Positions 32,088 through 51,158 of a DNA stretch of 64,000 nucleotides are shown here, in pieces. Below the pieces are notes generated by a model. That model saw nothing but the letters and a program-made list of their open reading frames with translations, did no database searches and was not told the DNA's origin. The translations under genes were made by a program, and so were the position numbers. How positions within the stretch are numbered: position 1 is the stretch's first letter; every line of letters starts with the position of its first letter. The DNA comes from an uncultured Ignavibacteria bacterium (GTDB lineage: Bacteria; Zixibacteria; MSB-5A5; SM1-73): NCBI GenBank assembly GCA_964580215.1, contig CAZOJT010000009.1, positions 15,991-79,990 of the forward strand. The letters are read 5' to 3'.

Positions 32088-32208
32088 AAAGAGATACATG
32101 AGAAAAAAGAGACTTAGAGTTAAATCAAATGAATGACGGATTGATCGGGTGAGAATATCAATCAAAAAGATAACCGCCCATCTGGGCGACAAAAAGGGAG
32201 TGAGTAAG

Positions 32209-33660
32209 ATGTTGAAAATAACCAGATTGATAAGGCTTGTTTTAATTTTCAGTTTATGTTTTTCCGCAAGCTTATTTTGGGGGATAAGAAGCTTTGCCGA
32301 AGTAACCGGAGGCATGGTCCATGATTATGATGACTCTTACGGGGTGAAACATCGGGTCATCTCCGATCCCTATTTGGATGTGGAGGTTTGGGTGGATAAG
32401 GGGGAGGGAGCCACTTACTATCCGGGTGAGGATATAAAAATCTATTTCCAAGCTTCGCGCGACTGCTACTTGGTGATCTATAACATAGATGCCAGAGGAT
32501 ATGTCCATCTACTCTACCCGTATGATTCAGCAGACGATTATTATGTTGAGGGTGGAAGGGTCTATAGAATCCCGGATAGGTTTGATGATTACGATCTGAC
32601 CGTAAACGGACCCAGCGGAGTGGAATATATCCAGGCAGTGGCAAGCTTGGAGCCTTTAGTTCTTCCCAACTTCCCTGGTGAATATTCGTATGAGGGTGAA
32701 ATATACGCATACCAACTGGATGGAGAGGATCCATTTGAATTCATGGCGGAGATAAATGCTGAAATCGCACCTTATGATTATGCCTCCGATGTCTGTATAT
32801 TTAGCGTAGACTACCAATACCCTAAGTGGTATTACTGGCCCCGGGTGGTATACGTGGATCGGCCGGTTGACATATATTGGGGGGGCGTTTATTTCGATTA
32901 TCCCTGGGGCGTGGAGGTATGGATTGACGGAGTCTTCTATGGAATCACCCCTATAACCATTCCGGCACTGGTGGTGGGAAGGCATTACGTAAGCTTCTGG
33001 TTTCATGGATGCTGGATCTGGAGAGACTGGTTTCGGGTGAGACGAGATTGCACCATAAGAGTATGGGCTGACTGTCACGATAGATACAGATATGTGAAGG
33101 AGAGGTTTGTAGAAAAAAGCTACCGGGCGGAGAAAGCTAAAAGAAGAAGGGGAGCTGGGGATATGGGTGGATTGGTGAAACCGGTTCGACATGTGGAGAA
33201 GGGAAGAAAAGCTTTAGCTGAGGTTTCACGTATCAAGAAAGAAAAGGAATTCAGAAAGGAACCGTCGGTAAAGCGAAGGGGACTTAAGGATCGTCCTGCT
33301 CCCTCACGCATAACCGCTAAACCAAAACCGAGCAAGATAGATAAAATCACCAGGGCTAAAAGCATCCGGAGGTCTTCGCCTTCCGAAAAAGCTACTTCCA
33401 TGGATAAAAGAAAGGCAAGAGCAAAGAAAATAATATCAATGGGTAAAACGTCAAAAAAGATAGTGAGAGATAATAAGCTTAACCGCCCAAATCAGCCATC
33501 AAAGGTAACGCAGAAGATGCGGAAAAGCGAAAGCTCAAAACCAAAGATTAGTAAGGCAAAAATAAGCAACAGAGAAAAAAGAGTGTCAAAATCAGCTGGC
33601 GTCAGGAAAACGCATGTCAAGGAGACAAGGGATAGCAAGCCGGGGAAGAGAAGAAGATAA
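32209..33660 (+). CDS. secreted DUF4384-like + PEGA-like domain protein with ~200-aa K/R/S-rich basic C-terminal tail
   Basis: The start was chosen at MLKITRLIRLV (signal peptide, SD agggag). YYPGEDIKIYFQASRDCYLVIYNIDARGYVHLLYP resembles DUF4384. The tail is extremely basic and of low complexity. Confidence 0.6.
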   Translation: MLKITRLIRLVLIFSLCFSASLFWGIRSFAEVTGGMVHDYDDSYGVKHRVISDPYLDVEVWVDKGEGATYYPGEDIKIYFQASRDCYLVIYNIDARGYVHLLYPYDSADDYYVEGGRVYRIPDRFDDYDLTVNGPSGVEYIQAVASLEPLVLPNFPGEYSYEGEIYAYQLDGEDPFEFMAEINAEIAPYDYASDVCIFSVDYQYPKWYYWPRVVYVDRPVDIYWGGVYFDYPWGVEVWIDGVFYGITPITIPALVVGRHYVSFWFHGCWIWRDWFRVRRDCTIRVWADCHDRYRYVKERFVEKSYRAEKAKRRRGAGDMGGLVKPVRHVEKGRKALAEVSRIKKEKEFRKEPSVKRRGLKDRPAPSRITAKPKPSKIDKITRAKSIRRSSPSEKATSMDKRKARAKKIISMGKTSKKIVRDNKLNRPNQPSKVTQKMRKSESSKPKISKAKISNREKRVSKSAGVRKTHVKETRDSKPGKRRR

Positions 33661-34300: not shown

Positions 34301-34385
34301 AAATTAGCCATTCTAAATTATGGCTTAAGGTTTTCGGTTAACCGTGATATTGCTCAAAAAATATTACTGATGAGAGGTGAGAGAG

Positions 34386-34937
34386 ATGAAGAAGATTTTT
34401 GTCGTTTTTGTGTGTATCCTGACCACCGTGGCTTTTCTTTCTTCGGCTTCTGCCATCGACCGAAGTTCCAAAAGCAACAGTTCAGATACGAAAGAGAAGC
34501 CAACCAAGATTAAAGAGATCAAAGAAAAAAAGACCACCAAGGAAAAGGCTGGAACGGTTACCTCCTCAAAGGAGGGTGTCCAGAAAAGGGAAGACAAAGA
34601 CGCGGTTGCGCCCAAAGAATCATCAAAGAAAATCAAGGGGTGGTTTAAGACAAAAAAGAGCAAGGAGAAATATGATTATTTCATAGATAGAAACAATAAT
34701 GGCATTGATGATCGGTTAGAAAGGGACGTAAAGGCAAGAAGCATAAAAAAGCAAGAACCTCTTAAGAAGCAAGAGACCATTAAGAAGCGGCCTTCTGTCC
34801 CTGCAGAAAAAGCGCCGGCAAAAGTGAGCCCCTCCATCAAAACGCCGAAAAAAGTAAAGGAAACAAAGGTAAGCGAACAGAAAAAAGAGACAAAAGTAAA
34901 GAAGACTGAGAAGAAGAGAGAAGGAGACAAAAGATAA
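34386..34937 (+). CDS. secreted lysine/glutamate-rich low-complexity protein
   Basis: Signal peptide, then K/E/T-rich sequence. One EF-hand-like loop (DRNNNGIDDRLE). Confidence 0.55.
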   Translation: MKKIFVVFVCILTTVAFLSSASAIDRSSKSNSSDTKEKPTKIKEIKEKKTTKEKAGTVTSSKEGVQKREDKDAVAPKESSKKIKGWFKTKKSKEKYDYFIDRNNNGIDDRLERDVKARSIKKQEPLKKQETIKKRPSVPAEKAPAKVSPSIKTPKKVKETKVSEQKKETKVKKTEKKREGDKR

Positions 34938-35244: not shown

Positions 35245-36447
35245 ATGAACGTTAAAACTAAAGAAGTGGGGCTTACCGGAAATCTGCGGACGGTTTCTTT
35301 ATCCGACCTGCTACAGTTGATCAGTGCGGCTGGAAAGACGGGAATGCTTCTGATCTCCCGGGATGACCAGAAAAGAGAGATATATTTCATGAAGGGAAAT
35401 ATCATCTACGCCTCCTCCTCGGGAAACGAAGATGAGCTTTTAGGAAATCTTGTTCTAAGGAGGAGGAAGATTCTCGAGCCAGATCTTAAGAGAGCTTTAA
35501 GCCTTCAGAAGCTGACCCGGAAAAGATTGGGCGCCATCCTCCTGGAGATGGGGGTTTTAACCAAAGAGGAGTTGATAGAATGCTTACAATATCAGATAGA
35601 GGAGATAATTTATAACCTGTTTGGCTGGAATTCAGGCGAGTTCATCTTTTACGAGGGGAGGTTGCCACCGGCAGACCAAATCACCACCCAGCTCAATACC
35701 ATGAACGTGATCATGGAGGGATCAAGGAGGATCGATGAATGGATACAAATCCAAAAAATTCTTCCGCCTGATGACGTGAAACTTCAGATGGTAAAAAATC
35801 CCAGGATAAAGTCGAGCACAGTGACCATGCCTGTAAATGACATACAGCTACTTCCCTTCATCGATGGAGAGAGAACCATCTCCGAGCTTTTGCAGGTAAG
35901 CCCTTTGAGCGAATTTTACACACGCAAGGCGTTATATAACCTGATCACTTCTGGCTTGGTTGAGGCAGGGGAGAAAAAAAAGATAAGAAAACAAGAGACG
36001 AACGGAGAGAAGCTCCTTTTGTATGTGATGATCAAACTATACTCTCAGTCCTATCAGACCATTGAGAAAATGGCCTCCCAAAAGTTGGGAGAGGGAGCCA
36101 AGAGGATTTTAAAGAGATGTTTTGACGCTCAAAAGTCTTTAAACCCTCTCTTGAGTAAACTGGAAAGCTCTGAGAATTTCTTAGACTTTCGCCATCTGGA
36201 AAACTCGGTAAATAAAATCCGTCAGCCCATCCGATTTCACAAGCTGATGGATGGATTAAATGATCTGCTTTTAGAATTCTTGAGATCTATCTCCAGAAGT
36301 TTGGGAAGAAACTTAACCAGGCAGGTTATCTCTCAGATCAAGAAGGAGACAGCCCAGGTGGTAGCTGAGCAGAGATGGATTGCAAAAGAGTATGAGTTGG
36401 AAGAAGAGCTTTTGAAAACTCTAAAGAAAAGCCAGCGATGTTTATAG
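35245..36447 (+). CDS. DUF4388 (PatA-N-like) domain protein with T2SSE_N/GspII-like helical repeat
   Basis: N-terminus LSDLLQLISAAGKTGMLLISRDDQKREIYFMKGNIIYASS resembles DUF4388. KRLGAILLEMGVLTKEELIECLQ resembles the PilB/GspE N-terminal domain motif. Confidence 0.65.
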   Translation: MNVKTKEVGLTGNLRTVSLSDLLQLISAAGKTGMLLISRDDQKREIYFMKGNIIYASSSGNEDELLGNLVLRRRKILEPDLKRALSLQKLTRKRLGAILLEMGVLTKEELIECLQYQIEEIIYNLFGWNSGEFIFYEGRLPPADQITTQLNTMNVIMEGSRRIDEWIQIQKILPPDDVKLQMVKNPRIKSSTVTMPVNDIQLLPFIDGERTISELLQVSPLSEFYTRKALYNLITSGLVEAGEKKKIRKQETNGEKLLLYVMIKLYSQSYQTIEKMASQKLGEGAKRILKRCFDAQKSLNPLLSKLESSENFLDFRHLENSVNKIRQPIRFHKLMDGLNDLLLEFLRSISRSLGRNLTRQVISQIKKETAQVVAEQRWIAKEYELEEELLKTLKKSQRCL

Positions 36448-36878
36448 AAAAACTTCATAAGTTCTTGAAAGGAAATATAAGTAGAAAACTAACCTGTGTT
36501 ATCAGCTTCTGGTTGGTATTTTTTTCTGCACAGGTCTCCTTCGCCTATGAAAGTGCCGATATTTTCCGGGCGGAGATTCGAGGCTCCGGCTCTTTATCGG
36601 TTCTTTCAGCACTTTTTGATATTTTGCTTCTGGTGGGGGCGTTTGCCTGTTTTCTTATCTCGGTGAGAGTTAAATCATTCTTAAAAGATGGGGAGCTGGC
36701 TTCCGGATGGACTCTTTTTTCGCTCTCCTTTGTCCTTTTGTTTGTGGCTCAGCTTCTTAGCTTTTCTTTAAGCGTTGGTCTTCTGAATATCTCCCCCAAC
36801 ATAATCTCCTCACTTCGTGTTTTGTTTATCCTTTTTTTAGCTTCTGGTATTTACTTTATGAAAAAAGTCCTGAGTTGA
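36438..36878 (+). CDS. small 4-TM membrane protein
   Basis: Overlaps the upstream stop by 10 nt (translational coupling); hydrophobic segments. Confidence 0.5.
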   Translation: MFIEKLHKFLKGNISRKLTCVISFWLVFFSAQVSFAYESADIFRAEIRGSGSLSVLSALFDILLLVGAFACFLISVRVKSFLKDGELASGWTLFSLSFVLLFVAQLLSFSLSVGLLNISPNIISSLRVLFILFLASGIYFMKKVLS

Positions 36879-37138
36879 TCTGACACCTTTAAGTTTATCA
36901 GTCTTATGAACTTTCGGATTTCTCTCAAGCCCAGAAAGTAAGGGGACTTAGCCCCATTTTTTCAACCACCAAAGTTAAGTAACCGAATTTGACTGTCGAT
37001 AAACCTATTAGTTAAATCTTAAGGGTCTTCGGATTTGTCTTAAAACATCTATCCCGGGGAATCGCATCTTTGTCGGAGGTGAATTTTTGTAGCATCTGTG
37101 GTTTAGGGGGGGAAGTGTAGCTTAAGCTGAGAGGATTT

Positions 37139-37987
37139 ATGCAGCCAACTGTACAGTTGGATGAAAGAATCTCCAAATGTGAGGAGATTTTAGCTCACAA
37201 TCCCGAATCCATGATTTTTGCGGCCCTATCGGATGCCTATCGTAAGAAGGGAGATTTGGCTAAAGCGTTTCATGCCTGCACTCGAGGTTTAAAGCTTCAT
37301 CCCGATTACGGTCCCGGACATCTGGTGATGGCAAAGATCAACATGGAAAGAGGAATGTATTCCGAGGCGGAAAAGGAGCTTGCTCTGGCGGTTCAGGCAG
37401 ATGGCAAAACCAGAGCCACCGAGCTTCTTCTGGCTCAGATTCTCATGAAGAAAGATCAAATAAAAGATGCCAAAAAGATCTTAGAAAAGCTCAAAGCCAC
37501 TGATCCGGAAAATGAGGTGGTGGGCGAGCTTCTGAAGTCTATAAAGCAAAAAGCGGATTTCGGCAGGATCCATGGGACCGACAAGCCGGGCTACGATGTG
37601 ATGACGGTGCAGGAACGCTGGCATATAGAGAAGGTGGTGGATCTTAAAGACGGGGTGCATTATTTGAAATCCCTGCCGGACGTATTGGGGGCGTTGGTGG
37701 TAGGAGAGGATGGATTGGTGCTGGAGAGCAGGCTAAACCCCAATTTTAAAAAAGAGCGAATCGGGGCAATCGCCACTTGCATCACCCAATGTGTGAAAGA
37801 TGGGGTAGGTGGGATAGGGTTTGGAGAATATGAACAGGTCTTGATAGAGACGGAAAACCTTGAGTTTTGGATAATGAAATTCAACAACCAAGCTTTTGTA
37901 TTGTGTTGTGCCCCAGAAGCCAATCTGGGAGCTTTAAAGATAAGAGTGGGTGAGCTTCTGGAACACCTCTCCAGAAACCTTGAATAA
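37139..37987 (+). CDS. TPR repeat + Roadblock/LC7 domain fusion protein
   Basis: N-terminal TPR-like helices. C-terminal LGALVVGEDGLVLESRL…FWIMKFNNQAFVLCCAPEANLGALKIRV is the Roadblock/LC7 pattern. Confidence 0.7.
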   Translation: MQPTVQLDERISKCEEILAHNPESMIFAALSDAYRKKGDLAKAFHACTRGLKLHPDYGPGHLVMAKINMERGMYSEAEKELALAVQADGKTRATELLLAQILMKKDQIKDAKKILEKLKATDPENEVVGELLKSIKQKADFGRIHGTDKPGYDVMTVQERWHIEKVVDLKDGVHYLKSLPDVLGALVVGEDGLVLESRLNPNFKKERIGAIATCITQCVKDGVGGIGFGEYEQVLIETENLEFWIMKFNNQAFVLCCAPEANLGALKIRVGELLEHLSRNLE

Positions 37988-37999
37988 GAGGGAGGTAAG

Positions 38000-38929
38000 G
38001 TGAATTCTGATTACAGAGGGGAGTTGAGAGGAGTTCTTTTGGTCTCCTTTTTTATCATGGTGGTTCCACTGATATTCTTCCCCAGGGATTTCGGGCTGAA
38101 ATTGGATTGGTCGCTCTTTTTGCTTTTCGCTTTTGAGTTGGGCTGGTATATGCTGATCCTGTTTGTCATGTTTTCCAAAGCATCAGCTCCAAAGGTGTTT
38201 CTATTTGGCCTGTTGACTCTGGGCTATCGAATTGGCTTGGGCATTGGATTTGGTATACTTCTTCTGGTTATGTTTCCTTTGTCTTTATCCTCCTCGCTTC
38301 AGTTGGGAATCTGTCAATATATGCCGGCTTTTCTTCTTCAAGCTTTGATGTCTCCATTTGTGCTCAAATCACTTTTTGAATCCTCTATGGGGAAAACAAA
38401 AAAAGCTGAAGAGACGCCAATGGAGTTTGAGCGAAGGGTTGCAGAACCCCTTCCTTCTTCTTTTACTCCTGAAATATCAAAAGAGAGGTTAGATGGCAGA
38501 AGATCAATTCCCTCACAAAAGGAGATTAAGGTGGCAGGAGAAGACAAATTAGAAAACATTTTGCACTACCTGAGAGAGTATGCCGGAGTGAAGGCGGCTA
38601 TTCTGGTGGATCAAGAGGGTTTGGTGGTGGCGAAAGATTCTTTATCCGATTATGATCCGGAGAAGGTTGCCTCCTTCGCTCGGTGCTTGAAGGAGACGAA
38701 TGACCAAATACTTCACAAGATGGGAGAGAAGACCTCGGAACGAATTGGAATTTATACCCCGGATATGTGGATATGCTTAAATCAGATAGAAGGCTTCACA
38801 TTGGTGGTGGTGTCCGATCGCCGCACGGATGAGTTGCTTTCGGTTCGAATATTACAGTCCACCGGAATGATAAAGAAAATTCTTTCCGAGAGGTACCAGC
38901 AAAATATCCTAAAAGTTGTGGAGGCATGA
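38000..38929 (+). CDS. membrane-anchored (4-TM) Roadblock/LC7 domain protein
   Basis: N-terminal TM helices. C-terminal AAILVDQEGLVVAKDS…FTLVVVSDRRTDELLSVRI is a Roadblock fold. Confidence 0.65.
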   Translation: MNSDYRGELRGVLLVSFFIMVVPLIFFPRDFGLKLDWSLFLLFAFELGWYMLILFVMFSKASAPKVFLFGLLTLGYRIGLGIGFGILLLVMFPLSLSSSLQLGICQYMPAFLLQALMSPFVLKSLFESSMGKTKKAEETPMEFERRVAEPLPSSFTPEISKERLDGRRSIPSQKEIKVAGEDKLENILHYLREYAGVKAAILVDQEGLVVAKDSLSDYDPEKVASFARCLKETNDQILHKMGEKTSERIGIYTPDMWICLNQIEGFTLVVVSDRRTDELLSVRILQSTGMIKKILSERYQQNILKVVEA

Positions 38930-39281
38930 TATGTATAAAATATTGGAAGAGCTGAACAAAACTACCGGGATCAACGGCAGCATGGTAGTAGGAGAGGACG
39001 GCATCGTGATCGCCGCTGATTTAAATACCCAGCTTCAAGACGAGGCAGTGGGGGCTTTGGCGGCTTCCATCGTCAGCACGGTCAAGAAGTCGATGGAACG
39101 CCTTTCCAATGAGGATTTAAAACAGATAACCGTGGAGGCCGGCAAAGGCAAGTTATTTTTTACCGAAGTGGGGATAGGCATCCTGGCGGTCACCACGGAT
39201 TCTCAGGTAAATGTGGGGCTGGTTCGGCTGGAGATAAAAAATGCGGCGGAAAAAATAAAGCTTGCCCGAAAGTCCGCCTGA
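38916..39281 (+). CDS. Roadblock/LC7 domain protein (MglB paralogue, MglC-like)
   Basis: 121 aa: INGSMVVGEDGIVIAADL…ILAVTTDSQVNVGLVRLEI. Overlaps the upstream gene by 14 nt. Confidence 0.7.
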   Translation: MWRHDMYKILEELNKTTGINGSMVVGEDGIVIAADLNTQLQDEAVGALAASIVSTVKKSMERLSNEDLKQITVEAGKGKLFFTEVGIGILAVTTDSQVNVGLVRLEIKNAAEKIKLARKSA

Positions 39282-39313: not shown

Positions 39314-40300
39314 ATGGCATCTATAAATTATGCCTTCAAGGAGATCTCGTGTAAGATAGTTTTCTACGGTCCCGGACTTTCCGGAAAAACCACCAACCTC
39401 CAATACGTTCATCAAAAGATCCCGCCTCAGACCAGAGGGAACTTGATCTCTTTAGCCACTGATCAGGACAGAACCCTTTATTTTGATTTTCTTCCAGTGG
39501 ACATCGGCAAGATACATGGGTTTTCCACCAAGTTTCAGCTTTACACCGTCCCCGGGCAGGTGTATTACAATGCTACCAGAAAGCTGGTCTTAAGAGGTGT
39601 GGATGGTTTGGTCTTCGTGGCAGACTCCCAAAAATCCAAAATGGATGAGAACATGGAAAGCTTTCAGAATCTGGTGGAAAATCTGTCAGAATACGGATAC
39701 GACATAGACAAGATTCCTTTAGTGTTTCAATATAACAAAAGAGACTTTCCTGACATCAGCTCGTTGGAGGAACTAGGGAAAGCATTAAACCCTGAGGGGC
39801 TTCCCTACTTTGAAGCGGTTGCCACCAAAGGGATAGGTGTATTTGATGTCCTGAAGTGTATCAGCAAATTGGTCTTGGATCAAGCCAAACGTAGACAACT
39901 CTTTCCGGAAAGGGAGATTGAAACCGAGGAGGTTGAAAAAGCGCCGGCTTTGCTGAGTCTCTCCCAGATGCCGCAAACTGAGCAAATGGCAGAAGCTTTG
40001 AACTCCTCAACCCCTGTTGAGAACTTGACCCAAGAGGCGGTAACCACCATCACCCAAAAGAAACCTGAGCCTCCAGCAGAGGAGATAACCCCAAAGCCAC
40101 AAGATACCCACAAAGAAACAAAACCCGAAATCGAGTTGGATATAGGAGAAATCGCCGAGAAAGAAAAGGTGAAGATGGATCAGATTCCCTCCAGGGAGAG
40201 CCCCACCATAATAAGCTGGTCAGCCGGAAAATCCGGCAAAAAGACCAAATCGAAAGGATTCTTTTTATGGCGCTTTGTGAATAAACTTTTCAATAGATAG
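39314..40300 (+). CDS. mglA: MglA-family Ras-like GTPase with ~130-aa C-terminal extension
   Basis: Residues 1-195 align to Myxococcus MglA at roughly 60-65% identity: P-loop GPGLSGKTT, switch I DRTLYFDF (Arg finger), TVPGQ (catalytic Gln), NKRD. The extension is an acidic/Pro-rich linker ending in the basic amphipathic tail KSGKKTKSKGFFLWRFVNKLFNR. Confidence 0.85.
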   Translation: MASINYAFKEISCKIVFYGPGLSGKTTNLQYVHQKIPPQTRGNLISLATDQDRTLYFDFLPVDIGKIHGFSTKFQLYTVPGQVYYNATRKLVLRGVDGLVFVADSQKSKMDENMESFQNLVENLSEYGYDIDKIPLVFQYNKRDFPDISSLEELGKALNPEGLPYFEAVATKGIGVFDVLKCISKLVLDQAKRRQLFPEREIETEEVEKAPALLSLSQMPQTEQMAEALNSSTPVENLTQEAVTTITQKKPEPPAEEITPKPQDTHKETKPEIELDIGEIAEKEKVKMDQIPSRESPTIISWSAGKSGKKTKSKGFFLWRFVNKLFNR

Positions 40301-40309
40301 AGCGGAGGT

Positions 40310-40822
40310 GTGAAATTGAGACAGGAGGATCTGGTAATCTATGAGGAGCAGATCGAAAAGATAGAGAAAGCTCTGAGCAGGTTAATCGAGGATGCACAAG
40401 CCAAGTGTGTGCTCCTGGTGGACAAGGATGGCCATTTGATCACTCGTCAGGGTTTCACTCAATCTTTGGATACCACTGCCCTGGCGGCGCTTTTAGCTGG
40501 AAGCTTTGCCTCCACCCGAGAGATTGCCCGTCTGGTGGGAGAGCCGGAGTTTTCCGTTCTTTTCCATCAGGGCAAGAAGGATCATATTCATATCACTCTG
40601 GTGGGGGAAAGGACCATTCTGGCGGTCGTCTTTGATGATCGAACCACCATCGGCATGGTTCGGCTTTATGCTAAAGAGGCTACTGAAAATCTGGGAAAGG
40701 TTTTCTCTTCTGCCAACCGTCAGGACCGCCAAACTGAAGAGGAGAAGAAAACCGACTTAGATTCAGAGTTTTCGACTTCTTTAGAAAACAGGCTGGATGA
40801 TATCTTTTCTGAGCAATCCTGA
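40310..40822 (+). CDS. mglB: MglB (Roadblock/LC7 GAP of MglA)
   Basis: Aligns along its full length with M. xanthus MglB (VLLVDKDGHLI…DTTALAAL…GMVRLYAKEA…DDIFSE). Confidence 0.8.
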   Translation: MKLRQEDLVIYEEQIEKIEKALSRLIEDAQAKCVLLVDKDGHLITRQGFTQSLDTTALAALLAGSFASTREIARLVGEPEFSVLFHQGKKDHIHITLVGERTILAVVFDDRTTIGMVRLYAKEATENLGKVFSSANRQDRQTEEEKKTDLDSEFSTSLENRLDDIFSEQS

Positions 40823-40969: not shown

Positions 40970-42670
40970 GTGAAAGTTATGTCAAGCGAATTAGGAGAAA
41001 TGCTGGTTAAGGCAGGCAAGATATCGGGGGAACAGCTTACCCAGGCTTTGGACTTACAAAAAACCAACAAGGAGAAGTTAGGGGATATTCTGATTAAGAC
41101 GGGAGCCCTCTCCAGTGAGGAGGATCTCTCAGAATTTATCGGTAGGCAGTTAAATATTGGCGCTTTGAGGCTATCTGATATCGAGTTGAATCCAGAGGTG
41201 GTGAAGATGATTCCCCCAGACATTGCCAGAAAGTTCAACGTCATGGCCGTCGGCAAGCTGGGCAAGACTTTGATAGTAGCTATTTCGGATCCTAATAACA
41301 TTTACGTTTTAGACGCCATAAAGTTTATCACTGGATGCGCGGTTCAGCCGGTTATCAGCCCGGAGAAAGCCATCCAGAAGGCGATAGATACCTATTATCG
41401 GGATGCCGCAGGAATCGACCAGATACTTAAGGGACTGAAAGAAGGGGACCTGGAGGTGATTGAGGAGAGCGATGAGGTTCCCACCGAGCAGGACCTAATA
41501 TCCCAGGTGCAGGATAAACCTTTAGTCAAGCTGGTGGATTCCATCATCGGCGATGCCATCCGAAGAGGTTGTTCGGACATTCACATAGAAACCTATGAAA
41601 AAAGAATAAGGGTCAGATCCAGATTGGATGGAAATTTGCAAGAGATGTCTCCCCTACCTTTCAAATATCGTGCCGCTATCGTTTCCAGGATAAAGATAAT
41701 GGCGGATTTAGACATCTCTGAGAGAAGATTGCCTCAGGATGGCAGGATAAAGGTGAAGTTCGGTGATCGGGCAGTGGATCTAAGAGTATCCGTTCTTCCC
41801 ACCATATTTGGGGAGAAGGTGGTGATGCGAATTCTGGATCCGGGGAGCGTTAACGTCGATTTAACAAAATTAGGTTTCCCGCAACACTCTCTTAAGAAGT
41901 TCGAAAAAACCATCCACCTTCCCTACGGCATGATCCTGGTGACTGGTCCCACCGGAAGTGGGAAAACCACCACCCTCTATTCTGCCTTAAAACAGATTAA
42001 CACCACGGATATCAATATAATGACCGCCGAAGATCCGGTGGAGTTCAATTTCGAGGGAATAAATCAGGTGGCGGTGAAAAGCGAGATCGGACTGACCTTT
42101 GCCGCTTCTTTAAGGTCGTTTTTGAGGCAGGACCCGGACGTAATCATGGTAGGAGAGATCAGGGATACCGAGACCGCAGAGATCGCGGTGAGAGCCGCCT
42201 TAACCGGACATTTGGTCTTCTCCACCCTGCATACCAACGATGCTCCCAGCACCATCGACCGGTTGATCGATATGGACATTCCCAACTACCTGGTGGCTTC
42301 CTGTGTCAGGTTGATCATGGCTCAAAGGATGGTGCGCAAGATCTGCCCTAATTGTAAACACCAGGTTCAAATTCCCTCAGAGACCCTCCAGATGCTGGGA
42401 CTTGTTGACAACGAAATCAAAGGTCTCAAAGTTTATGAAGGGAAGGGTTGTTCGGAATGCAATAATACCGGCTATTCAGGAAGAACCGGTATTTTTGAGG
42501 TGATGCCCATGACTCCTGCAATTGAAAGGATGATAGTTTCCAGAGCCTCCAGCGCGGAGATAAGGCAACAGGCTATAACCGAGGGCATGCTCACTTTAAG
42601 AGTTGCCGCTTTGGATAAGTTAAAGCAAGGCGTTACCACTGTAGAAGAGGTTTTAGCAGTAACTGCTTGA
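40970..42670 (+). CDS. pilB: type IV pilus assembly ATPase PilB
   Basis: T2SSE_N domain, Walker A GPTGSGKTT, Asp box, tetracysteine motif CPNC…CSEC. Confidence 0.9.
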   Translation: MKVMSSELGEMLVKAGKISGEQLTQALDLQKTNKEKLGDILIKTGALSSEEDLSEFIGRQLNIGALRLSDIELNPEVVKMIPPDIARKFNVMAVGKLGKTLIVAISDPNNIYVLDAIKFITGCAVQPVISPEKAIQKAIDTYYRDAAGIDQILKGLKEGDLEVIEESDEVPTEQDLISQVQDKPLVKLVDSIIGDAIRRGCSDIHIETYEKRIRVRSRLDGNLQEMSPLPFKYRAAIVSRIKIMADLDISERRLPQDGRIKVKFGDRAVDLRVSVLPTIFGEKVVMRILDPGSVNVDLTKLGFPQHSLKKFEKTIHLPYGMILVTGPTGSGKTTTLYSALKQINTTDINIMTAEDPVEFNFEGINQVAVKSEIGLTFAASLRSFLRQDPDVIMVGEIRDTETAEIAVRAALTGHLVFSTLHTNDAPSTIDRLIDMDIPNYLVASCVRLIMAQRMVRKICPNCKHQVQIPSETLQMLGLVDNEIKGLKVYEGKGCSECNNTGYSGRTGIFEVMPMTPAIERMIVSRASSAEIRQQAITEGMLTLRVAALDKLKQGVTTVEEVLAVTA

Positions 42671-42801: not shown

Positions 42802-43896
42802 ATGGTCACCTTACGGGAACTCTTGGAATTAATCGTGAAGAAGAATGCCTCCGACCTTCATTTAACTGTGGGTTCGCCACCCCGGTTGAGAATAGATGGA
42901 AAGCTGGTCAAAACCGATTTTGATATTTTAACCGCAGAGGGGACCAAAAAGCTGGCTTACAGCATAATGAATGAGAAGCAGAGGCAGAAATTTGAGGAGA
43001 AAAGCGAACTTGACCTTTCCTTTGGGATTGAAAACTTGAGCAGATTCAGGTGTAACGTTTTTATGCAGAGGGGGAATGTGGCGGTAGCTATAAGACAGAT
43101 CCCTTTCCGCATCCCCAGTTTCGAGGAGTTAGGCATACCCAAGGTGGTAGCCGAGTTGGCTGAGTTGCCCCGGGGTTTGGTGCTGATAACCGGACCCACC
43201 GGAAGCGGAAAATCCACCAGCTTAGCCGCCCTGATCAATAAGGTAAACCAGGAAAGATACTGTCACATCCTGACGGTGGAGGATCCCATCGAGTATCTTC
43301 ATCGGCACAATTGTTCACTGATCAACCAGAGGGAGGTTTATGCCGATACCCAGTCCTTTGCCAGTGCTTTAAAATACGCCCTAAGAGAGGATCCGGATGT
43401 GGTTTTAGTGGGAGAGATGAGAGATTTAGAAACCATGGAAGCCACCTTAAACATCTCCGAGACCGGACATTTAGCCTTTGCCACACTGCATACCAACTCC
43501 TGTGCCGAGTCGATTAACAGAATCATCGACGTGTTTCCCAGCAATCAGCAGGAGCAGGTTCGGGTTACCGTCTCCTTCGTTTTGCAGGCGGTGATAAGCC
43601 AGCAGTTGATCCCCCAAATAGGAGGAGGGAGGGTGTTGGCTTTGGAGATCATGATCTGCACACCGGCCATCAGGGCATTAATCCGGGATGATAAGATTCA
43701 TCAGATCTATAGCCTGATGCAGGCGGGACAGAAGTATGGCATGAGGACTATGAATCAATCTTTAGCCGAGCTTTATCTGAAACATAAAATCACCCTGGGT
43801 GACGCTATGGGAAGAAGCTCAAATGTGCAGGAGCTGAATGAGCTTTTAGCTAGAAAATCTGAGATAAGCCGGCAACGGCGTACAGCTGGAGTATAA
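42802..43896 (+). CDS. pilT: twitching motility retraction ATPase PilT
   Basis: N-terminal ASDLHLTVGSPPRLRIDG, Walker A GPTGSGKST, AIRALIRD motif. Confidence 0.9.
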   Translation: MVTLRELLELIVKKNASDLHLTVGSPPRLRIDGKLVKTDFDILTAEGTKKLAYSIMNEKQRQKFEEKSELDLSFGIENLSRFRCNVFMQRGNVAVAIRQIPFRIPSFEELGIPKVVAELAELPRGLVLITGPTGSGKSTSLAALINKVNQERYCHILTVEDPIEYLHRHNCSLINQREVYADTQSFASALKYALREDPDVVLVGEMRDLETMEATLNISETGHLAFATLHTNSCAESINRIIDVFPSNQQEQVRVTVSFVLQAVISQQLIPQIGGGRVLALEIMICTPAIRALIRDDKIHQIYSLMQAGQKYGMRTMNQSLAELYLKHKITLGDAMGRSSNVQELNELLARKSEISRQRRTAGV

Positions 43897-44040: not shown

Positions 44041-45240
44041 TTGCCAGTTTTCACCTATAAGGGAAGGACATTAGGGGGAACTCAAGTTACAGGTGAGTTG
44101 AAGGTAAAAAACCGGGCTGAGTTGGAAAGGATCCTGCGGAGCAAAAAGGTTTTAGTGTCTCAGGTCTCCACCAAGCCTTCTCAGATAAGCATAAGAATCG
44201 GCACCGGAATAAAGAAGGTGCATATCTCCCGATTCACCCGGCAATTCGCCACCATGATCGGAGCCGGACTCCCCATGGTCCAATGTCTGGAGATATTATC
44301 CCAGCAGATGGAATCAGCAGAACTGAGAAGGGTCGTCGGCGAGATAAAGGAAAGCGTGCAGGCAGGTACCACCTTGTCAGAAGCCTTAGCCCGACACAAA
44401 AAGGTCTTTGATGATCTTTATGTTAATATGGTGGACGCGGGTGAGATCGGAGGAGCTTTAGACACCATTCTGGTTCGACTGGCCATTTACCGGGAAAAGG
44501 CAGATGCTCTGGTGCGTAAGGTAAAAGGAGCCTTAATCTATCCGGCGGTGGTGATGACCGTAGCTATCGGAGTCACCTTCATCATGTTGACTTACATAGT
44601 TCCCGTCTTTGCCAAGATGTTTTCCGGTCTGGGCGCGGAGTTACCTGCCCCCACTCAGTTCATTCTGTCTTTGAGTGCATTCATCCGAGGCAATATCTTA
44701 ACCGGAGTAGTTCTGTTGGTCCTTTTGATCATCGCATATAAATTTTATTCAAGGACCGATAAAGGCAGATACAATATTGATTACCTGAAGTTGCGAATTC
44801 CGCTTATTGGGGATTTGATAAGGAAGAGTTCCATCGCAAGATTTTCGCGCACACTGGGAACCTTGATCTCCTCAGGAGTTTCCATTCTGGATGCGCTGGA
44901 CATCACCGCCCGCGCATCGGGCAATCGGGTGATACATGATGCCATAAAAAAATCGGTTCTCTCCATCGCAGAAGGAGAAACCATAACCCAGCCTTTGAAG
45001 CAGTGTGGAGTCTTTCCTCCCATGGTTACCCAGATGATCTCAGTGGGAGAAAAAACCGGAGGGCTGGATGAGATGCTTTCCAAGATTGCCGACTTCTATG
45101 ATGAGGAGGTGGACGCCGCCGTGGCGGCTTTAACCTCCGTCATTGAGCCGGTGATCATAGTTTTCATGGGAGTGGTGATCGGAGGAATCTTGATAGCCAT
45201 GTACCTCCCTATGTTCGATATTATTGGAAAGATAAGCTAA
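44041..45240 (+). CDS. pilC: type IV pilus platform protein PilC (GspF family)
   Basis: Two T2SF repeats; 3 TM. Confidence 0.85.
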   Translation: MPVFTYKGRTLGGTQVTGELKVKNRAELERILRSKKVLVSQVSTKPSQISIRIGTGIKKVHISRFTRQFATMIGAGLPMVQCLEILSQQMESAELRRVVGEIKESVQAGTTLSEALARHKKVFDDLYVNMVDAGEIGGALDTILVRLAIYREKADALVRKVKGALIYPAVVMTVAIGVTFIMLTYIVPVFAKMFSGLGAELPAPTQFILSLSAFIRGNILTGVVLLVLLIIAYKFYSRTDKGRYNIDYLKLRIPLIGDLIRKSSIARFSRTLGTLISSGVSILDALDITARASGNRVIHDAIKKSVLSIAEGETITQPLKQCGVFPPMVTQMISVGEKTGGLDEMLSKIADFYDEEVDAAVAALTSVIEPVIIVFMGVVIGGILIAMYLPMFDIIGKIS

Positions 45241-45727: not shown

Positions 45728-47497
45728 ATGCAGATGGATGTGAACAAATCAGAACTCTCTTATTCTAAAATCCCCTGGCTTCTTTTGTCACGCCTCTCCA
45801 TATTTATTCTGTTGTTGATAATTGTGGTTCTCTTTTTCCATGTGCCGGATTTTCTGGTGCTGCCCTTCACCATTTACTCTTTTGTAACCCTATCTCTTCT
45901 TTTGCTCATTGCGTTCGACCAGAGACGAACTCAAAAGCTACTATTTAATGCCGTAGTGATTTTGCAACTCATCTTGGAGATTGTAGTCGAGACCGGGGTG
46001 GTTTATCATACCGGTGGCATAGACAGTCCCTTCGCCATTCTTTTTATTTTGACCATCCTCTCCGCCAGCCTGATTTATCGATTGATCGGAAGTGTGCTTT
46101 TGGCTGGTTTATCCAGCCTGGCTTATGTTTCTATTCTCTGGTTTGAGGGAGGATTGGAATTTTCCTTCAAAAGCCTACTTTTGATTAGCGATGCCTCATT
46201 TTATGAGGCTTTTCTTTACATCTGCACCTTCTTTCTGGTGGCTTTTATAAGTGGCTATCTATCGGAAAAATTGAAAGTGAAAAGGGAAGAGTTGTGGAGT
46301 GCTTCTCTGGAGTTAAGCAAGATTAAAACGGATACGGACGATATACTAAGGCATCTGAAAAGCGGTCTGATAACCGTCGACACCTGGGGAAGAATCGTTT
46401 ATTTTAACCGGGCGGCAGAGGAGATACTGGGATATTCTGAAGTGGAGGTGAAAGGGAAAGATTGCCGGGACGTGTTCAAGCAAAGAATGCCCCAACTGGC
46501 GGAAAAAATATTTCAACCGATAAAATTCAACCAGGAGGATTCGAGGGGTCTCCTGCATATCGAAGGTAAAAACAACCGAAAGATTCCCATCGGGATAAGC
46601 ACATCCATTCTGAGAGATAGAGAAAAGGGAGCGAGGGGAGTGATCGCCATATTTCAAGATATCACCGAGGTGATGAAATTGGAGGAAAGACTCAGGATGG
46701 CCGACAGATTGGCCGCAGTGGGTGAACTCTCAGCCGGGATCGCTCATGAGATACGGAATCCTTTAGCCTCCATCTCCGGGTCGGTGGAAGTTTTAAAGGG
46801 GGAGCTTTCCTTGGCCGAGGAGGATCGAAGACTTTTGGATTTGATTATCAAAGAGAGCGGAAGGCTGAATCGGATTCTGACAGATTTCTTAGAATATGCT
46901 CGTATCGGTCCTTCGATGTTGAGCAAGGTGGAGTTAGTCCGTATTTTAGATGATGTTATAGAGATCGCTAAGAAGCATCCGTCTTTTGAAGAAAATATCT
47001 CAATAAAGAAAATCTTCTCTTCAGATGTCCGATATGTTTTAGGTGAAGAGAATCAGATAAAGCAGATATTTCTAAACCTTTTAGTAAATGCCATGGAATC
47101 AATGGAAGTCAGGTGGGGAGAGATATTGATAACTGACCGGACCTTAAATCAATTAGATCAATTTTACTTTACCCAGGAGGAGCCGGAGGAATCGGAATGG
47201 ATTGCTGTTGCCATCGCTGATCAAGGAAAAGGAATGACCGAGGAACAGAAGGAAAAAGTTTTTTCGCCATTTTATTCCACCAAAAAGAATGGCACCGGTC
47301 TGGGACTGTCGATAGTGCAGAGATTGATAAACAATCTGGGTGGAAGAATAGAATTTCGCAGTCAGCCGGGCAAAGGCTCTGTATTTGTACTTTATCTACA
47401 GAAATATGTGAAAAGGAAAGCCAGGTTATCTCAAACGGTTCACATCGCAAATTTAGCAGACTTAGATGTTTGCACTCCAGAACTTCGGCAAACATAA
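45728..47497 (+). CDS. membrane sensor histidine kinase (PilS/NtrB-like; 6-TM, PAS, HisKA, HATPase_c)
   Basis: H-box AGIAHEIRNPLASI; G boxes GTGLGLSIV and GKGSVF; PAS-like segment. Confidence 0.8.
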   Translation: MQMDVNKSELSYSKIPWLLLSRLSIFILLLIIVVLFFHVPDFLVLPFTIYSFVTLSLLLLIAFDQRRTQKLLFNAVVILQLILEIVVETGVVYHTGGIDSPFAILFILTILSASLIYRLIGSVLLAGLSSLAYVSILWFEGGLEFSFKSLLLISDASFYEAFLYICTFFLVAFISGYLSEKLKVKREELWSASLELSKIKTDTDDILRHLKSGLITVDTWGRIVYFNRAAEEILGYSEVEVKGKDCRDVFKQRMPQLAEKIFQPIKFNQEDSRGLLHIEGKNNRKIPIGISTSILRDREKGARGVIAIFQDITEVMKLEERLRMADRLAAVGELSAGIAHEIRNPLASISGSVEVLKGELSLAEEDRRLLDLIIKESGRLNRILTDFLEYARIGPSMLSKVELVRILDDVIEIAKKHPSFEENISIKKIFSSDVRYVLGEENQIKQIFLNLLVNAMESMEVRWGEILITDRTLNQLDQFYFTQEEPEESEWIAVAIADQGKGMTEEQKEKVFSPFYSTKKNGTGLGLSIVQRLINNLGGRIEFRSQPGKGSVFVLYLQKYVKRKARLSQTVHIANLADLDVCTPELRQT

Positions 47498-49159: not shown

Positions 49160-51031
49160 ATGTTAAACAAAGGGCTTGGTTTGATCCTGATGGTATTAAT
49201 GATGGCTGGGTTTGTATTTATCAGTTGTAGCAAAAAATCGACCAAACATGAACCACCCCCAAACCATGCCCCGCAAGGCTGGTTCTGGCAAAATCCTCTG
49301 CCTCAGGGAAATGACCTTAGAAGTGTTTGTTTTACAGACGCCAATACCGGCTGGGCAGTAGGAGCTGATGGCACAATCCTACACACCACCAATGGTGGAA
49401 GCAATTGGAATGGACAGAATTCTGGAACTTCGAATTGGCTTGAGAGTGTCTATTTTACAGATGCCAATACTGGGTGGGCAGTAGGAGAGGCTGGCACAAT
49501 CTTACACACCACCGACGGAGGAAGTAGCTGGAATCGTCAGAGTTCTGGAACTTCAAATGTTCTTTATAGTGTCTATTTTACAGATGCCAATACCGGCTGG
49601 GCAGTAGGATACCCTGGCACAATCTTACACACCACCGATGGTGGAAGCGATTGGAATGCTCAGAATTCTGGAACTTCAAATTGGTTTTATAGTGTCTATT
49701 TTACAGATGCCAATACTGGCTGGGCAGTAGGATACTCTGGTACAATCGTACACACCACCGATGGTGGAAGCAATTGGAATTCTCAAACCTCTGGAACTTC
49801 ACATTACCTTGAAAGTGTCTATTTTGCGGATGCCAATACTGGCTGGGCAGTAGGAGATGATGGCACAATCTCACACACCACCAATGGAGGAAACAGCTGG
49901 TATGCTCAGAGTTCTGGAACCTCACACGGGCTTCTTAGTGTCTGTTTCACAGATGCCAATACCGGCTGGGCAGTAGGATGGGATGGCACAATCTTACACA
50001 CCACCGATGGTGGAAGCAACTGGAATGCTCAAACCTCTGGAACTACTTCAGATTACCTTGCAGGTGTCTATTTTACAGATGCCAACACTGGCTGGGCAGT
50101 AGGAATGCGTGGCACAATGTTACACACCACCGATGGAGGAAGCAGTTGGAATACTCAGAGTTCTGGAACTTTTAAATCCCTTGAAAGTGTCCATTTTACA
50201 GACGCCAATACCGGCTGGGCAGTAGGATGGGATGGCACAATCTTACACACCACCGATGGAGGAAGCAACTGGAATCTTCAAAGTTGTGGAACCACATCGG
50301 ATCTTAGTAGTGTGTATTTCACAGATGGCAATACTGGCTGGGCAGTAGGAGGTTGGGGCGGGATCGGCACAATCCGACACACCACCGATGGAGGAAGCAA
50401 CTGGAATGCTCAAACCTCTGGAGCTTCACATTACCTTGCAAGTGTCTATTTTACGGATGCCAATACCGGCTGGGTAGTAGGATCTGGTGGCACAATCTTA
50501 CACACCACCGATGGAGGAAGCAACTGGAATGCTCAAGCCTCTGGAACTTCACATTACCTTGAAAGTGTCTATTTTGCGGATGCCAATAACGGCTGGGTAG
50601 TAGGATGGGATGGCACAATCTTGCATACCACCGATGGAGGAAGCAAGTGGAATCCTCAACCTTCTGGAACTTCACGGGACCTTCATAGTGTCTATTTTAC
50701 AGATCCCGATACCGGCTGGGCAGTAGGGGATGGTGGCACAATCTTACGCGCCACTCGTGGTGGTGGAAGCAATTGGCATGCTCAGGATTCTAAAACCACC
50801 AGTCGCCTTAACAGCGTGCATTTCACAGATGCCAATACTGGCTGGGTAGTAGCTGAGGATGGACAAATCGTACACACCACCTCTGGTGGATACAACTGGA
50901 GTCACCAGAATTCTAAAACCGGTTGGGACCTTTACAGCTTGCATTTCACAGATGCCAATACCGGCTGGGCAGTAGGAAGGTATGGGACAATCTTGCACAC
51001 TACAACAGGAGGCGAAACTTCTGGGGAATAA
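49160..51031 (+). CDS. BNR/Ycf48-like lipoprotein, ~15 tandem ~38-aa propeller blades (double beta-propeller), paralogue A
   Basis: Lipoprotein signal (FISC). Repeats follow FTDANTGWAVG..GTILHTTDGGSNWN.Q.SGTS..L.SVY, with BNR/Asp-box TDGGSNW. Confidence 0.8.
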   Translation: MLNKGLGLILMVLMMAGFVFISCSKKSTKHEPPPNHAPQGWFWQNPLPQGNDLRSVCFTDANTGWAVGADGTILHTTNGGSNWNGQNSGTSNWLESVYFTDANTGWAVGEAGTILHTTDGGSSWNRQSSGTSNVLYSVYFTDANTGWAVGYPGTILHTTDGGSDWNAQNSGTSNWFYSVYFTDANTGWAVGYSGTIVHTTDGGSNWNSQTSGTSHYLESVYFADANTGWAVGDDGTISHTTNGGNSWYAQSSGTSHGLLSVCFTDANTGWAVGWDGTILHTTDGGSNWNAQTSGTTSDYLAGVYFTDANTGWAVGMRGTMLHTTDGGSSWNTQSSGTFKSLESVHFTDANTGWAVGWDGTILHTTDGGSNWNLQSCGTTSDLSSVYFTDGNTGWAVGGWGGIGTIRHTTDGGSNWNAQTSGASHYLASVYFTDANTGWVVGSGGTILHTTDGGSNWNAQASGTSHYLESVYFADANNGWVVGWDGTILHTTDGGSKWNPQPSGTSRDLHSVYFTDPDTGWAVGDGGTILRATRGGGSNWHAQDSKTTSRLNSVHFTDANTGWVVAEDGQIVHTTSGGYNWSHQNSKTGWDLYSLHFTDANTGWAVGRYGTILHTTTGGETSGE

Positions 51032-51158
51032 GAGCATGATAGCCATTTTTCGGTTTGCTCGCTTGGAGGATTCCCACCTTATTGCTTGACTTTTTTGTAT
51101 CTTGGGGTTAATTTATATGGAGCGATTGGTTTAAGTAATTAAATAGGAGGATTCCAAA

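Follow-up and report, generated by a model that had tools for sequence, protein, structure and literature searches.

Two consecutive genes at positions 37139-38929 (+ strand) of a stretch of 64,000 nucleotides (the window) from contig CAZOJT010000009.1 of an uncultured Zixibacteria genome encode proteins in which a C-terminal Roadblock domain is fused either to a tetratricopeptide repeat (TPR) domain or to a four-helix membrane domain. The span consists of exactly these two open reading frames (ORFs), and they directly precede genes for orthologues of MglA and MglB and the type IV pilus genes pilB, pilT and pilC. MglA and MglB are the model for a Ras-like switch that sets cell polarity in bacteria, and the cluster points to an undescribed, membrane-tethered version of this module. 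At the genomic level both genes are strongly tied to the GTPase module and to type IV pili. By analogy with the systems discussed below, we give an even chance to the reading that both proteins are accessory Roadblock subunits of a Zixibacteria-specific MglA/MglB switch controlling the pilus motor. The two genes and their parts are:

37139..37987, + strand: TPR-Roadblock protein, 282 amino acids, ATG start (Pfam TPR and Robl_LC7)
37139..37573, + strand: TPR domain of this protein, residues 1-145 (Pfam, AlphaFold2)
37607..37987, + strand: Roadblock domain of this protein, residues 157-282 and stop codon (Pfam, AlphaFold2, Foldseek)
38000..38929, + strand: transmembrane (TM)-Roadblock protein, 309 amino acids, GTG start behind a GGGAGG ribosome-binding site
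38000..38386, + strand: four-helix membrane domain of this protein, residues 1-129 (hydropathy, AlphaFold2)
38387..38536, + strand: disordered linker of this protein, about 50 residues (predicted local distance difference test, pLDDT, 27-37)
38537..38929, + strand: Roadblock domain of this protein, residues 180-309 and stop codon (Pfam, profile, Foldseek)

Several TPR families matched the TPR-Roadblock protein above their Pfam cut-offs (TPR_19 49.5 bits, TPR_2 36.8, TPR_14 35.9; also TPR_8), and Robl_LC7 (PF03259) was found over residues 176-253 at 29.1 bits (cut-off 23; E 8.5e-7). In the TM-Roadblock protein Robl_LC7 was the sole Pfam match and covers residues 185-271 at 25.7 bits (cut-off 23; E 9.5e-6); no Pfam family was found for the membrane domain. 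Because these Roadblock scores are modest, the fold was checked directly by structure prediction. AlphaFold2 models were built from homologue alignments of 28 sequences for the TPR-Roadblock and 30 for the TM-Roadblock protein.

The model of the TPR-Roadblock protein has a mean pLDDT of 86. Its TPR part comprises eight helices between residues 3 and 145 (TPR helices at pLDDT about 88-96), which we interpret as three TPR pairs framed by a cap and a solvating helix. Residues 143-154 are disordered and are followed by an alpha-beta-beta-alpha-beta-beta-beta-alpha arrangement over residues 157-279. The top match of this model in a Foldseek search of the PDB was an Asgard Roadblock protein (7yh1; E 6e-8, target TM-score 0.87, root-mean-square deviation (RMSD) 1.4), and MglB and LAMTOR2 structures were likewise matched. 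PDB matches of the TPR domain were consensus TPR proteins, OGT, Hop TPR1, SGTA and RPAP3. By profile and by its predicted helix pairs, this domain is a member of the TPR repeat family, and the TPR-Roadblock protein as a whole is cytoplasmic.

The hydropathy profile of the TM-Roadblock protein contains strong hydrophobic segments at residues 9-27, 39-57 and 66-96 and a weaker one around 100-125, and the model (mean pLDDT 72) places helices at 3-26, 39-57, 63-91 and 96-121. The linker (132-180) is disordered, and residues 180-308 adopt the same Roadblock topology as in the TPR-Roadblock protein. Two lysines in loop 2 (K60, K65) and a lysine-rich stretch that follows helix 4 agree, by the positive-inside rule, with both termini lying inside the cell. 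We infer an inner-membrane protein of four-helix N-in/C-in topology, which would put the Roadblock domain in the cytoplasm. The top Foldseek match in the PDB was Myxococcus xanthus MglB (6hjm; E 8e-9, target TM-score 0.86, RMSD 1.9 Å). Used as a single sequence against the PDB, the TM-Roadblock protein matched no Roadblock chain; the profile of its homologues matched the Asgard Roadblock chain 7f8f (E 1.2e-5). Both Roadblock models superpose on Asgard Roadblock, MglB, CvnB-like and LAMTOR2 chains with target TM-scores of 0.79-0.88. By profile and by fold, both C-terminal domains belong to the Roadblock superfamily (PF03259). A preliminary description of this region had claimed such folds at the C-termini, and AlphaFold2, Foldseek and Pfam bear this out in both proteins; the N-terminal partners that it had named, a TPR array and a four-helix membrane anchor, were likewise recovered by Pfam, AlphaFold2 and hydropathy. 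The observation is correct and well above chance.

Within each protein, sequence conservation is concentrated in the folded parts. The TPR domain is the most conserved part of its protein (mean pairwise identity 66%, compared with 51% for the Roadblock domain and 38% for the linker), and the corresponding values in the TM-Roadblock protein are 55% for the membrane domain, 61% for the Roadblock domain and 21% for the linker. As the N-terminal and the Roadblock domains are conserved and the linkers are not, both halves of each protein are under purifying selection. Many TPR residues are invariant in the 28-sequence alignment (e.g. R35, Y57, G58, G60, N68, R71 and E76-E78), and polar or aromatic residues within the membrane helices (E46, W49, Y50, Y76, R77) are conserved together with prolines in the 30 homologues. 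These invariant TPR and membrane-helix positions suggest specific contacts rather than a passive anchor.

The genes around the two fusions form a module with the following members:

35245..36447, + strand: PATAN (DUF4388) protein, 400 amino acids, first gene of the conserved module (Pfam DUF4388, 119.5 bits)
36438..36878, + strand: small membrane protein, 146 amino acids (hydropathy profile; syntenic in relatives)
36879..37138, no strand assigned: intergenic region of about 260 bp (alignment of 10 loci)
38931..39281, + strand: stand-alone Roadblock protein, 116 amino acids (Robl_LC7, 53 bits)
39314..40300, + strand: MglA orthologue, 328 amino acids, GTPase domain at residues 1-193
40310..40822, + strand: MglB orthologue, 170 amino acids including a C-terminal tail (Robl_LC7, 55 bits)
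40970-42670, + strand: pilB, with an MshEN domain (Pfam T2SSE 466 bits, MshEN 63 bits)
42802-43896, + strand: pilT (Pfam T2SSE, 156 bits)
44041-45240, + strand: pilC (Pfam T2SSF, 217 bits)
45728..47497, + strand: PilS-like sensor histidine kinase (Pfam 6TM_PilS, PAS, HisKA, HATPase_c), found downstream of pilC in relatives too

The ORF of the 116-residue Roadblock protein begins in the mechanical ORF list at a TTG (38916); an ATG behind GGAGG is present at 38931. A physical connection of a GTPase module to the envelope and to the pilus platform had been proposed for this region. What is borne out is a genomic link of both genes to a GTPase module and to type IV pili, as they stand directly before the mglA and mglB orthologues and pilB-pilT-pilC. 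No pilM, pilN, pilO, pilP or pilQ gene was found among the window ORFs scanned. The flanks of the cluster consist of housekeeping genes (complex I upstream, ATP synthase downstream), which places it in the core chromosome.

The window MglA matched M. xanthus MglA with an E value of 6e-79 over residues 1-193, and the window MglB matched M. xanthus MglB (6izw_B) with 9e-38 over residues 7-168; judged by these matches, they are true orthologues of the Myxococcus proteins. Residues 194-328 of MglA (39893-40300) form a variable acidic and proline-rich C-terminal tail, which has 135 residues in the window and 110-250 across relatives (tails compared in 24 related loci). At the end of the window tail, the conserved motif PTIISWSAGK is followed by a polybasic stretch and then by the amphipathic helix GFFLWRFVNKLFNR at 40256-40297 (ending KSGKKTKSKGFFLWRFVNKLFNR; hydrophobic moment 0.59). 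The polybasic and amphipathic ending is kept in all Zixibacteria lineages examined, including the one in which the TM-Roadblock protein has no membrane domain (see below), for instance as KKRGFFKRLFGIK and KNKRKKFGLLGMFKKSNK. Such an ending recalls the hypervariable region of eukaryotic Ras and Rho proteins and probably serves to target MglA to the membrane.

Related loci (28 fetched and one available as a gene table, some of them cut at contig ends; numbered here with the prefix L) share the order PATAN protein, small membrane protein, TPR-Roadblock, TM-Roadblock, 116-residue Roadblock, MglA, MglB, PilB, PilT, PilC, PilS. From PATAN to pilS this order is the same in L001-L020, except that pilT and pilC do not follow pilB in L001, and the module order is also kept in the divergent lineages L021-L025 and L028. 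The TPR-Roadblock and TM-Roadblock frames are protein-conserved in every fetched locus that reaches them, down to 37-48% identity. At every locus examined mglA and mglB lie between the genes of the three other Roadblock proteins (the trio) and pilB, and among these loci none carries the trio without mglA and mglB. The gene comEC (DUF4131 and Competence domains) directly precedes the module in L001, L021-L024 and L028; the genes upstream of the module in the window differ.

To follow the TM-Roadblock family further, its profile was used in a HMMER search of 1.84 billion representative proteins. It matched 247 proteins at E<=1e-3, 103 of them at E<=1e-30; about 100 are full-length proteins with membrane and Roadblock domains (296-356 amino acids). 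The most divergent full-length members (100-120 bits) are encoded in the same operon, often directly after comEC. All homologues that carry an organism name are from the candidate division Zixibacteria. A scan with one genome per species gave 18 loci, some of which are labelled 'uncultured Ignavibacteria' in third-party assemblies; the matches from assemblies with that label are 53-77% identical to the window protein. As far as the HMMER search shows, the family is both phylum-wide and phylum-restricted.

A form of the TM-Roadblock protein without the anchor was found as well. Fourteen representative proteins of 133-156 amino acids (most 147-151) among the best 150 of the 247 matches consist of the Roadblock part alone and have natural N-termini. 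In L026 (578-1024) and in L028 (10001-10447; complete Zixibacteria genome CP070742.1) the short form occupies the TM-Roadblock slot, between the TPR-Roadblock gene and a Roadblock gene of about 112 codons. Truncated gene calls were considered and rejected for these two loci, since the short genes start 13-15 nucleotides after the TPR-Roadblock stop codon; the TM-less forms are real. Two further short matches, whose start codons are not ATG, lie outside the TM-less clade and probably represent fragments. When the Roadblock domains were placed in a neighbour-joining tree, the fourteen TM-less proteins formed one exclusive clade nested among TM-bearing proteins, which weakly suggests a single loss of the anchor, the tree being midpoint-rooted and without support values. 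These results also bear on the proposal that the two genes are Rosetta-stone fusions, linking functions encoded separately elsewhere. For the TM protein, the Roadblock part is indeed found alone (147-151 amino acids, in one clade), but this looks like loss of the anchor, and the membrane domain was not seen as a separate gene among the best 150 of the 247 matches, the one TM-only match checked (P0365) being cut by a contig end. The strict Rosetta-stone argument is weak.

With MglB, the operon encodes four Roadblock domains. Their families were compared pairwise with hhalign, MglB being represented by the operon's own family (probability and E value):

116-residue protein and TPR-fused domain: 98.6%, E 7e-16
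TPR-fused and TM-fused domain: 97.5%, E 5e-12
116-residue protein and TM-fused domain: 96%, E 3e-9
116-residue protein and MglB: 87%, E 4e-6
TPR-fused domain and MglB: 0.7%, E 0.08
TM-fused domain and MglB: 34%, E 4e-4

By this comparison one of the four is MglB, and the trio consists of generic Roadblock domains that are paralogous to one another and distinct from MglB; two of the trio appear to have gained extra domains (TPR; four-helix membrane). The similarity of the TPR-fused and TM-fused domains to MglB is below what orthologues would show (0.7% and 34%). The 116-residue protein is the best conserved of the three non-MglB paralogues, with 71-90% identity over 20 loci (tblastn) and 56-63% in the most divergent lineages. 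Its family profile is nearest to the Asgard Roadblock protein 7yh1 (E 5.5e-15), compared with only 7e-4 for MglB; CvnB5 (3leq) was matched at E 2.5e-5. Only Zixibacteria orthologues appeared among the best 120 matches listed in a search with this family. An identification of the 116-residue paralogue as MglC was considered and dropped, as neither its sequence nor its profile matched a PDB chain named MglC at E<=1.

In helix 2 of M. xanthus MglB, A64 and G68 presumably lie on the face that contacts MglA, and their substitution presumably abolishes the GTPase-activating protein (GAP) activity of MglB. The trio has S/K (116-residue protein), Q/D (TPR-fused) and E/Q (TM-fused) at the equivalent positions, in alignments of 13-23% identity whose register is uncertain; neither fused domain has the small residues of MglB there.

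The reading of the two proteins as accessory subunits has to be weighed against others. Each might instead regulate MglA directly, as a GAP, co-GAP or exchange factor that homodimerises like MglB, its TPR or membrane part only placing the activity in the cytosol or at the membrane. Roadblock proteins are widely implicated in GTPase regulation (PMC4316618, PMC10329633), both genes lie directly upstream of mglA, and the top structural matches of the TM-Roadblock domain are MglB chains, among them MglB bound to MglA (6izw, 6h5b). We nevertheless hold a direct regulatory role to be unlikely. The extra Roadblock protein of Myxococcus, MglC, binds MglB and RomR, not MglA (PMC10329633). In the window, a true MglB is already present in the operon, and the profiles of both fused domains are far from MglB (0.7%, 34%) and close to the 116-residue paralogue. 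The Q/D and E/Q pairs at the A64/G68 positions, with their presumed role in MglA contact, speak in the same direction. It is also conceivable, and in our estimate distinctly improbable, that the proteins act on the pilus machine without MglA, helping to assemble or align the inner-membrane platform or serving in a competence pilus, the Roadblock fold being a mere dimerisation module. At every locus examined mglA and mglB intervene before pilB, the trio was never found without them, and we know of no pilus assembly protein with a Roadblock fold. Such a role would nonetheless suit a cluster that runs straight into pilB-pilT-pilC-pilS, the placing of the module after comEC in divergent lineages and the lack of pilM/N/O/P/Q among the window ORFs scanned, and three-repeat TPR modules are generic peptide binders, as the PDB matches to Hop TPR1, SGTA and RPAP3 illustrate.

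A chance or annotation artefact, in which weak Pfam matches fell on unrelated ORFs or on frame-shifted or merged genes, would be compatible with Robl_LC7 scores only 3-6 bits over the gathering cut-off and with a TM protein whose single sequence matches no Roadblock chain in the PDB. Its probability is negligible: the AlphaFold2 models match many Roadblock structures at Foldseek E values of 1e-7 to 1e-9, the homologue profile matches 7f8f (E 1.2e-5), and both the fetched loci and more than 100 clusters at 50% identity retain the full-length architecture.

Accessory subunits of an MglA/MglB switch have precedents in several systems. In M. xanthus, where MglA and MglB act with MglC, RomR-RomX and RomY, MglC and MglB Roadblock dimers stack into an MglC2:(MglB2)2 complex that is regulated by MglA-GTP and that its authors liken to Rag-Ragulator (PMC10329633). 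The window resembles this module in its MglA and MglB orthologues and in having extra Roadblock proteins beside MglB, as MglC is in Myxococcus, and the output in M. xanthus includes type IV pilus polarity (PMC10329633, PMC7519303). It differs in the number of extra Roadblock paralogues (three, not one), two of which carry a TPR or a four-helix membrane domain, in a long MglA tail with a probable membrane-targeting helix, in the union of these genes with pilBTC in one cluster, and in the lack of RomR, RomX and Frz genes among the window ORFs scanned.

For the TPR part, the preliminary description had pointed to a Bdellovibrio TPR protein that bridges MglA to the pilus machinery. This parallel is an analogy only: the closest NCBIfam TPR models score far under their cut-offs (PilW 25 bits, cut-off 154; GltE 25 bits, cut-off 225), and NCBIfam has no model for either the TPR-Roadblock or the TM-Roadblock protein. 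As described in its abstract, the Bdellovibrio protein Bd2492 binds MglA and RomR at the invasive pole (PMC3983030). SgmX is the better precedent; according to the abstract on this M. xanthus TPR protein, it is bound by MglA-GTP and positions PilB (PMC7519303). The abstracts thus offer, in both proteins, a TPR protein that works with MglA in type IV pilus formation, and they mention no Roadblock domain, whereas the short TPR domain here (three repeats) is fused to one.

The eukaryotic Ragulator contains two Roadblock heterodimers held at the lysosome by lipidated p18/LAMTOR1, which wraps around them (PMC5680233). In Ragulator (LAMTOR1-5) with its Rag GTPases, several paralogous Roadblock domains build a scaffold for a small GTPase at a membrane. 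The window system may do likewise: it has the parts for it, namely four Roadblock proteins, a membrane anchor and a GTPase with a probable membrane tail, and both models match LAMTOR2 (E 1e-5 to 1e-7, target TM-score 0.8-0.88). The anchor of Ragulator, however, is a separate lipidated subunit that is not a Roadblock protein, whereas here it is a polytopic helix bundle fused to Roadblock; moreover, Rag GTPases have Roadblock domains of their own and MglA has none. The resemblance is one of function by analogy. The Streptomyces conservon CvnA-CvnB-CvnC-CvnD is likewise a membrane-associated complex, in which CvnB is a Roadblock protein, CvnD belongs to the MglA family of GTPases and CvnA is a membrane protein (PMC4316618, PMC13343842). 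Its membrane component is a separate histidine-kinase-like sensor, it includes no TPR protein and has no pilus link; the Roadblock proteins of the window have no kinase domain. A large census of prokaryotic MglB homologues (Wuichet & Sogaard-Andersen 2014) contains only single-domain Roadblock proteins and receiver-Roadblock fusions (PMC4316618).

The PATAN protein, whose gene keeps its place in all related loci long enough to include it, carries at residues ~65-117 an MshE-type tandem motif for binding of cyclic di-GMP (c-di-GMP) (NCBIfam NF053729, 43.6 bits; cut-off 38). The second 24-mer of this motif, RLGAILLEMGVLTKEELIECLQYQ, fits what we take to be the MshE-type consensus. No family was matched by the C-terminal ~230 residues. 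PATAN genes are known near mglA and mglB genes (PMC4316618), and the Synechocystis PATAN domain, which is localised at the membrane, binds both PilB1 and the PilC N-terminus (bioRxiv 10.1101/2021.06.11.447907). The window protein shares its PATAN domain with the cyanobacterial pilus-motor regulators PixE and PixG; it differs from them in lacking a receiver domain and in having the MshE-type c-di-GMP motif and the ~230-residue C-terminal region.

A mechanism can be proposed along these lines. Roadblock dimers stack on other Roadblock dimers both in MglC2:(MglB2)2 and in Ragulator (LAMTOR2/3-LAMTOR4/5-RagA/C), so that the three paralogues would most likely pair with one another. The trio would then dock on the MglB dimer or on MglA, forming a scaffold that the membrane domain would hold at the cytoplasmic membrane beside the pilus motor. 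MglA, with a probable membrane-targeting tail of its own, would encounter the scaffold there. For the strongly conserved TPR groove a conserved partner would be expected, with MglA-GTP (as for SgmX), PilB, PilT and the PATAN protein as candidates. In view of the Synechocystis findings on PilB1 and PilC, the motor may be bridged directly by the PATAN/c-di-GMP protein rather than by the TPR domain, and this protein would be the one most likely to touch PilB and PilC directly. Such a system would control where or when pili extend or retract. A bolder version, which we put forward tentatively and consider doubtful, is a bacterial counterpart of Rag-Ragulator, in which a membrane-embedded trio scaffold is stacked on the MglB dimer and receives membrane-tethered MglA, the nucleotide state of MglA and c-di-GMP (through the PATAN protein and PilB) together gating PilB/PilT. 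If this were true, membrane-anchored, layered Roadblock scaffolds for small GTPases would not be a eukaryotic or archaeal invention.

Several points weigh against the reading of the two proteins as accessory subunits of a switch controlling the pilus motor. Membership in one operon implies a common function, not direct contact. The bulky or charged residues at the A64/G68 positions mean that the trio probably does not dock on MglA as MglB does, although these substitutions argue only weakly against MglB-like docking. The anchor-less orthologue in the same operon of one clade indicates that covalent anchoring is not essential to the module. The position of the module after comEC in divergent lineages means that the pili could serve DNA uptake rather than motility or polarity. 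Finally, Zixibacteria are an uncultured group.

What is new in this cluster is that three further Roadblock paralogues enlarge the MglA/MglB module, that a membrane and a TPR domain are covalently attached to two of them, and that the whole is hard-wired to the genes of the pilus motor. A literature search returned no paper linking Zixibacteria with MglA and none pertinent on type IV pili in Zixibacteria, and public annotations of both proteins read 'roadblock/LC7 domain-containing' or 'hypothetical'. The attachment of the switch to the envelope and the pilus motor is known only in Myxococcus, where it runs via soluble adaptors (RomR, MglC, SgmX, FrzS). The cluster would represent a natural alternative design, with one membrane-embedded Roadblock subunit, one carrying a peptide-binding TPR domain and a GTPase with a probable membrane tail, all encoded together with the motor that they presumably control. 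It offers concrete candidate proteins for reconstitution, each shorter than 330 residues, and gives a wider basis for comparing bacterial Roadblock-GTPase systems with the eukaryotic Rag-Ragulator.

Between the PATAN gene and the TPR-Roadblock gene lie the small membrane protein and the intergenic region. The former has 120-146 amino acids in relatives, a signal-peptide-like N-terminus and about three hydrophobic helices, and no Pfam or NCBIfam match was obtained. A possible origin as a split-off copy of the TM domain was rejected (nothing by BLASTP, hhalign probability 0.3%). The intergenic region (36879-37138) is conserved in length and partly in sequence in 10 loci and contains a short GC hairpin and a T-run, followed by the invariant blocks AAGTTAAG and TGTCGATAAA..TAGT. 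A scan of its + strand for sigma-70 and terminator consensus gave nothing significant and was no better than with shuffled sequence, and no RNA element was matched in Rfam. The region is possibly a terminator followed by a promoter/operator for the Roadblock-mglAB unit, so that the module would be transcribed as two separate units.

Immediately before the PATAN gene's module, on the + strand, lie genes for a 503-residue protein with a DUF4384 domain, a weak PEGA match and a long K/R-rich tail at its end (32149-33660) and for a K/E-rich low-complexity protein of 186 residues with a signal-peptide-like start and no family match (34377-34937). Downstream of the pilS-like kinase gene and of a gene for a beta-helix/NosD-like protein, positions 49160-53033 encode two adjoining proteins of 623-624 residues built of YCF48-like BNR/Asp-box repeats (PSII_BNR, 262 and 373 bits).

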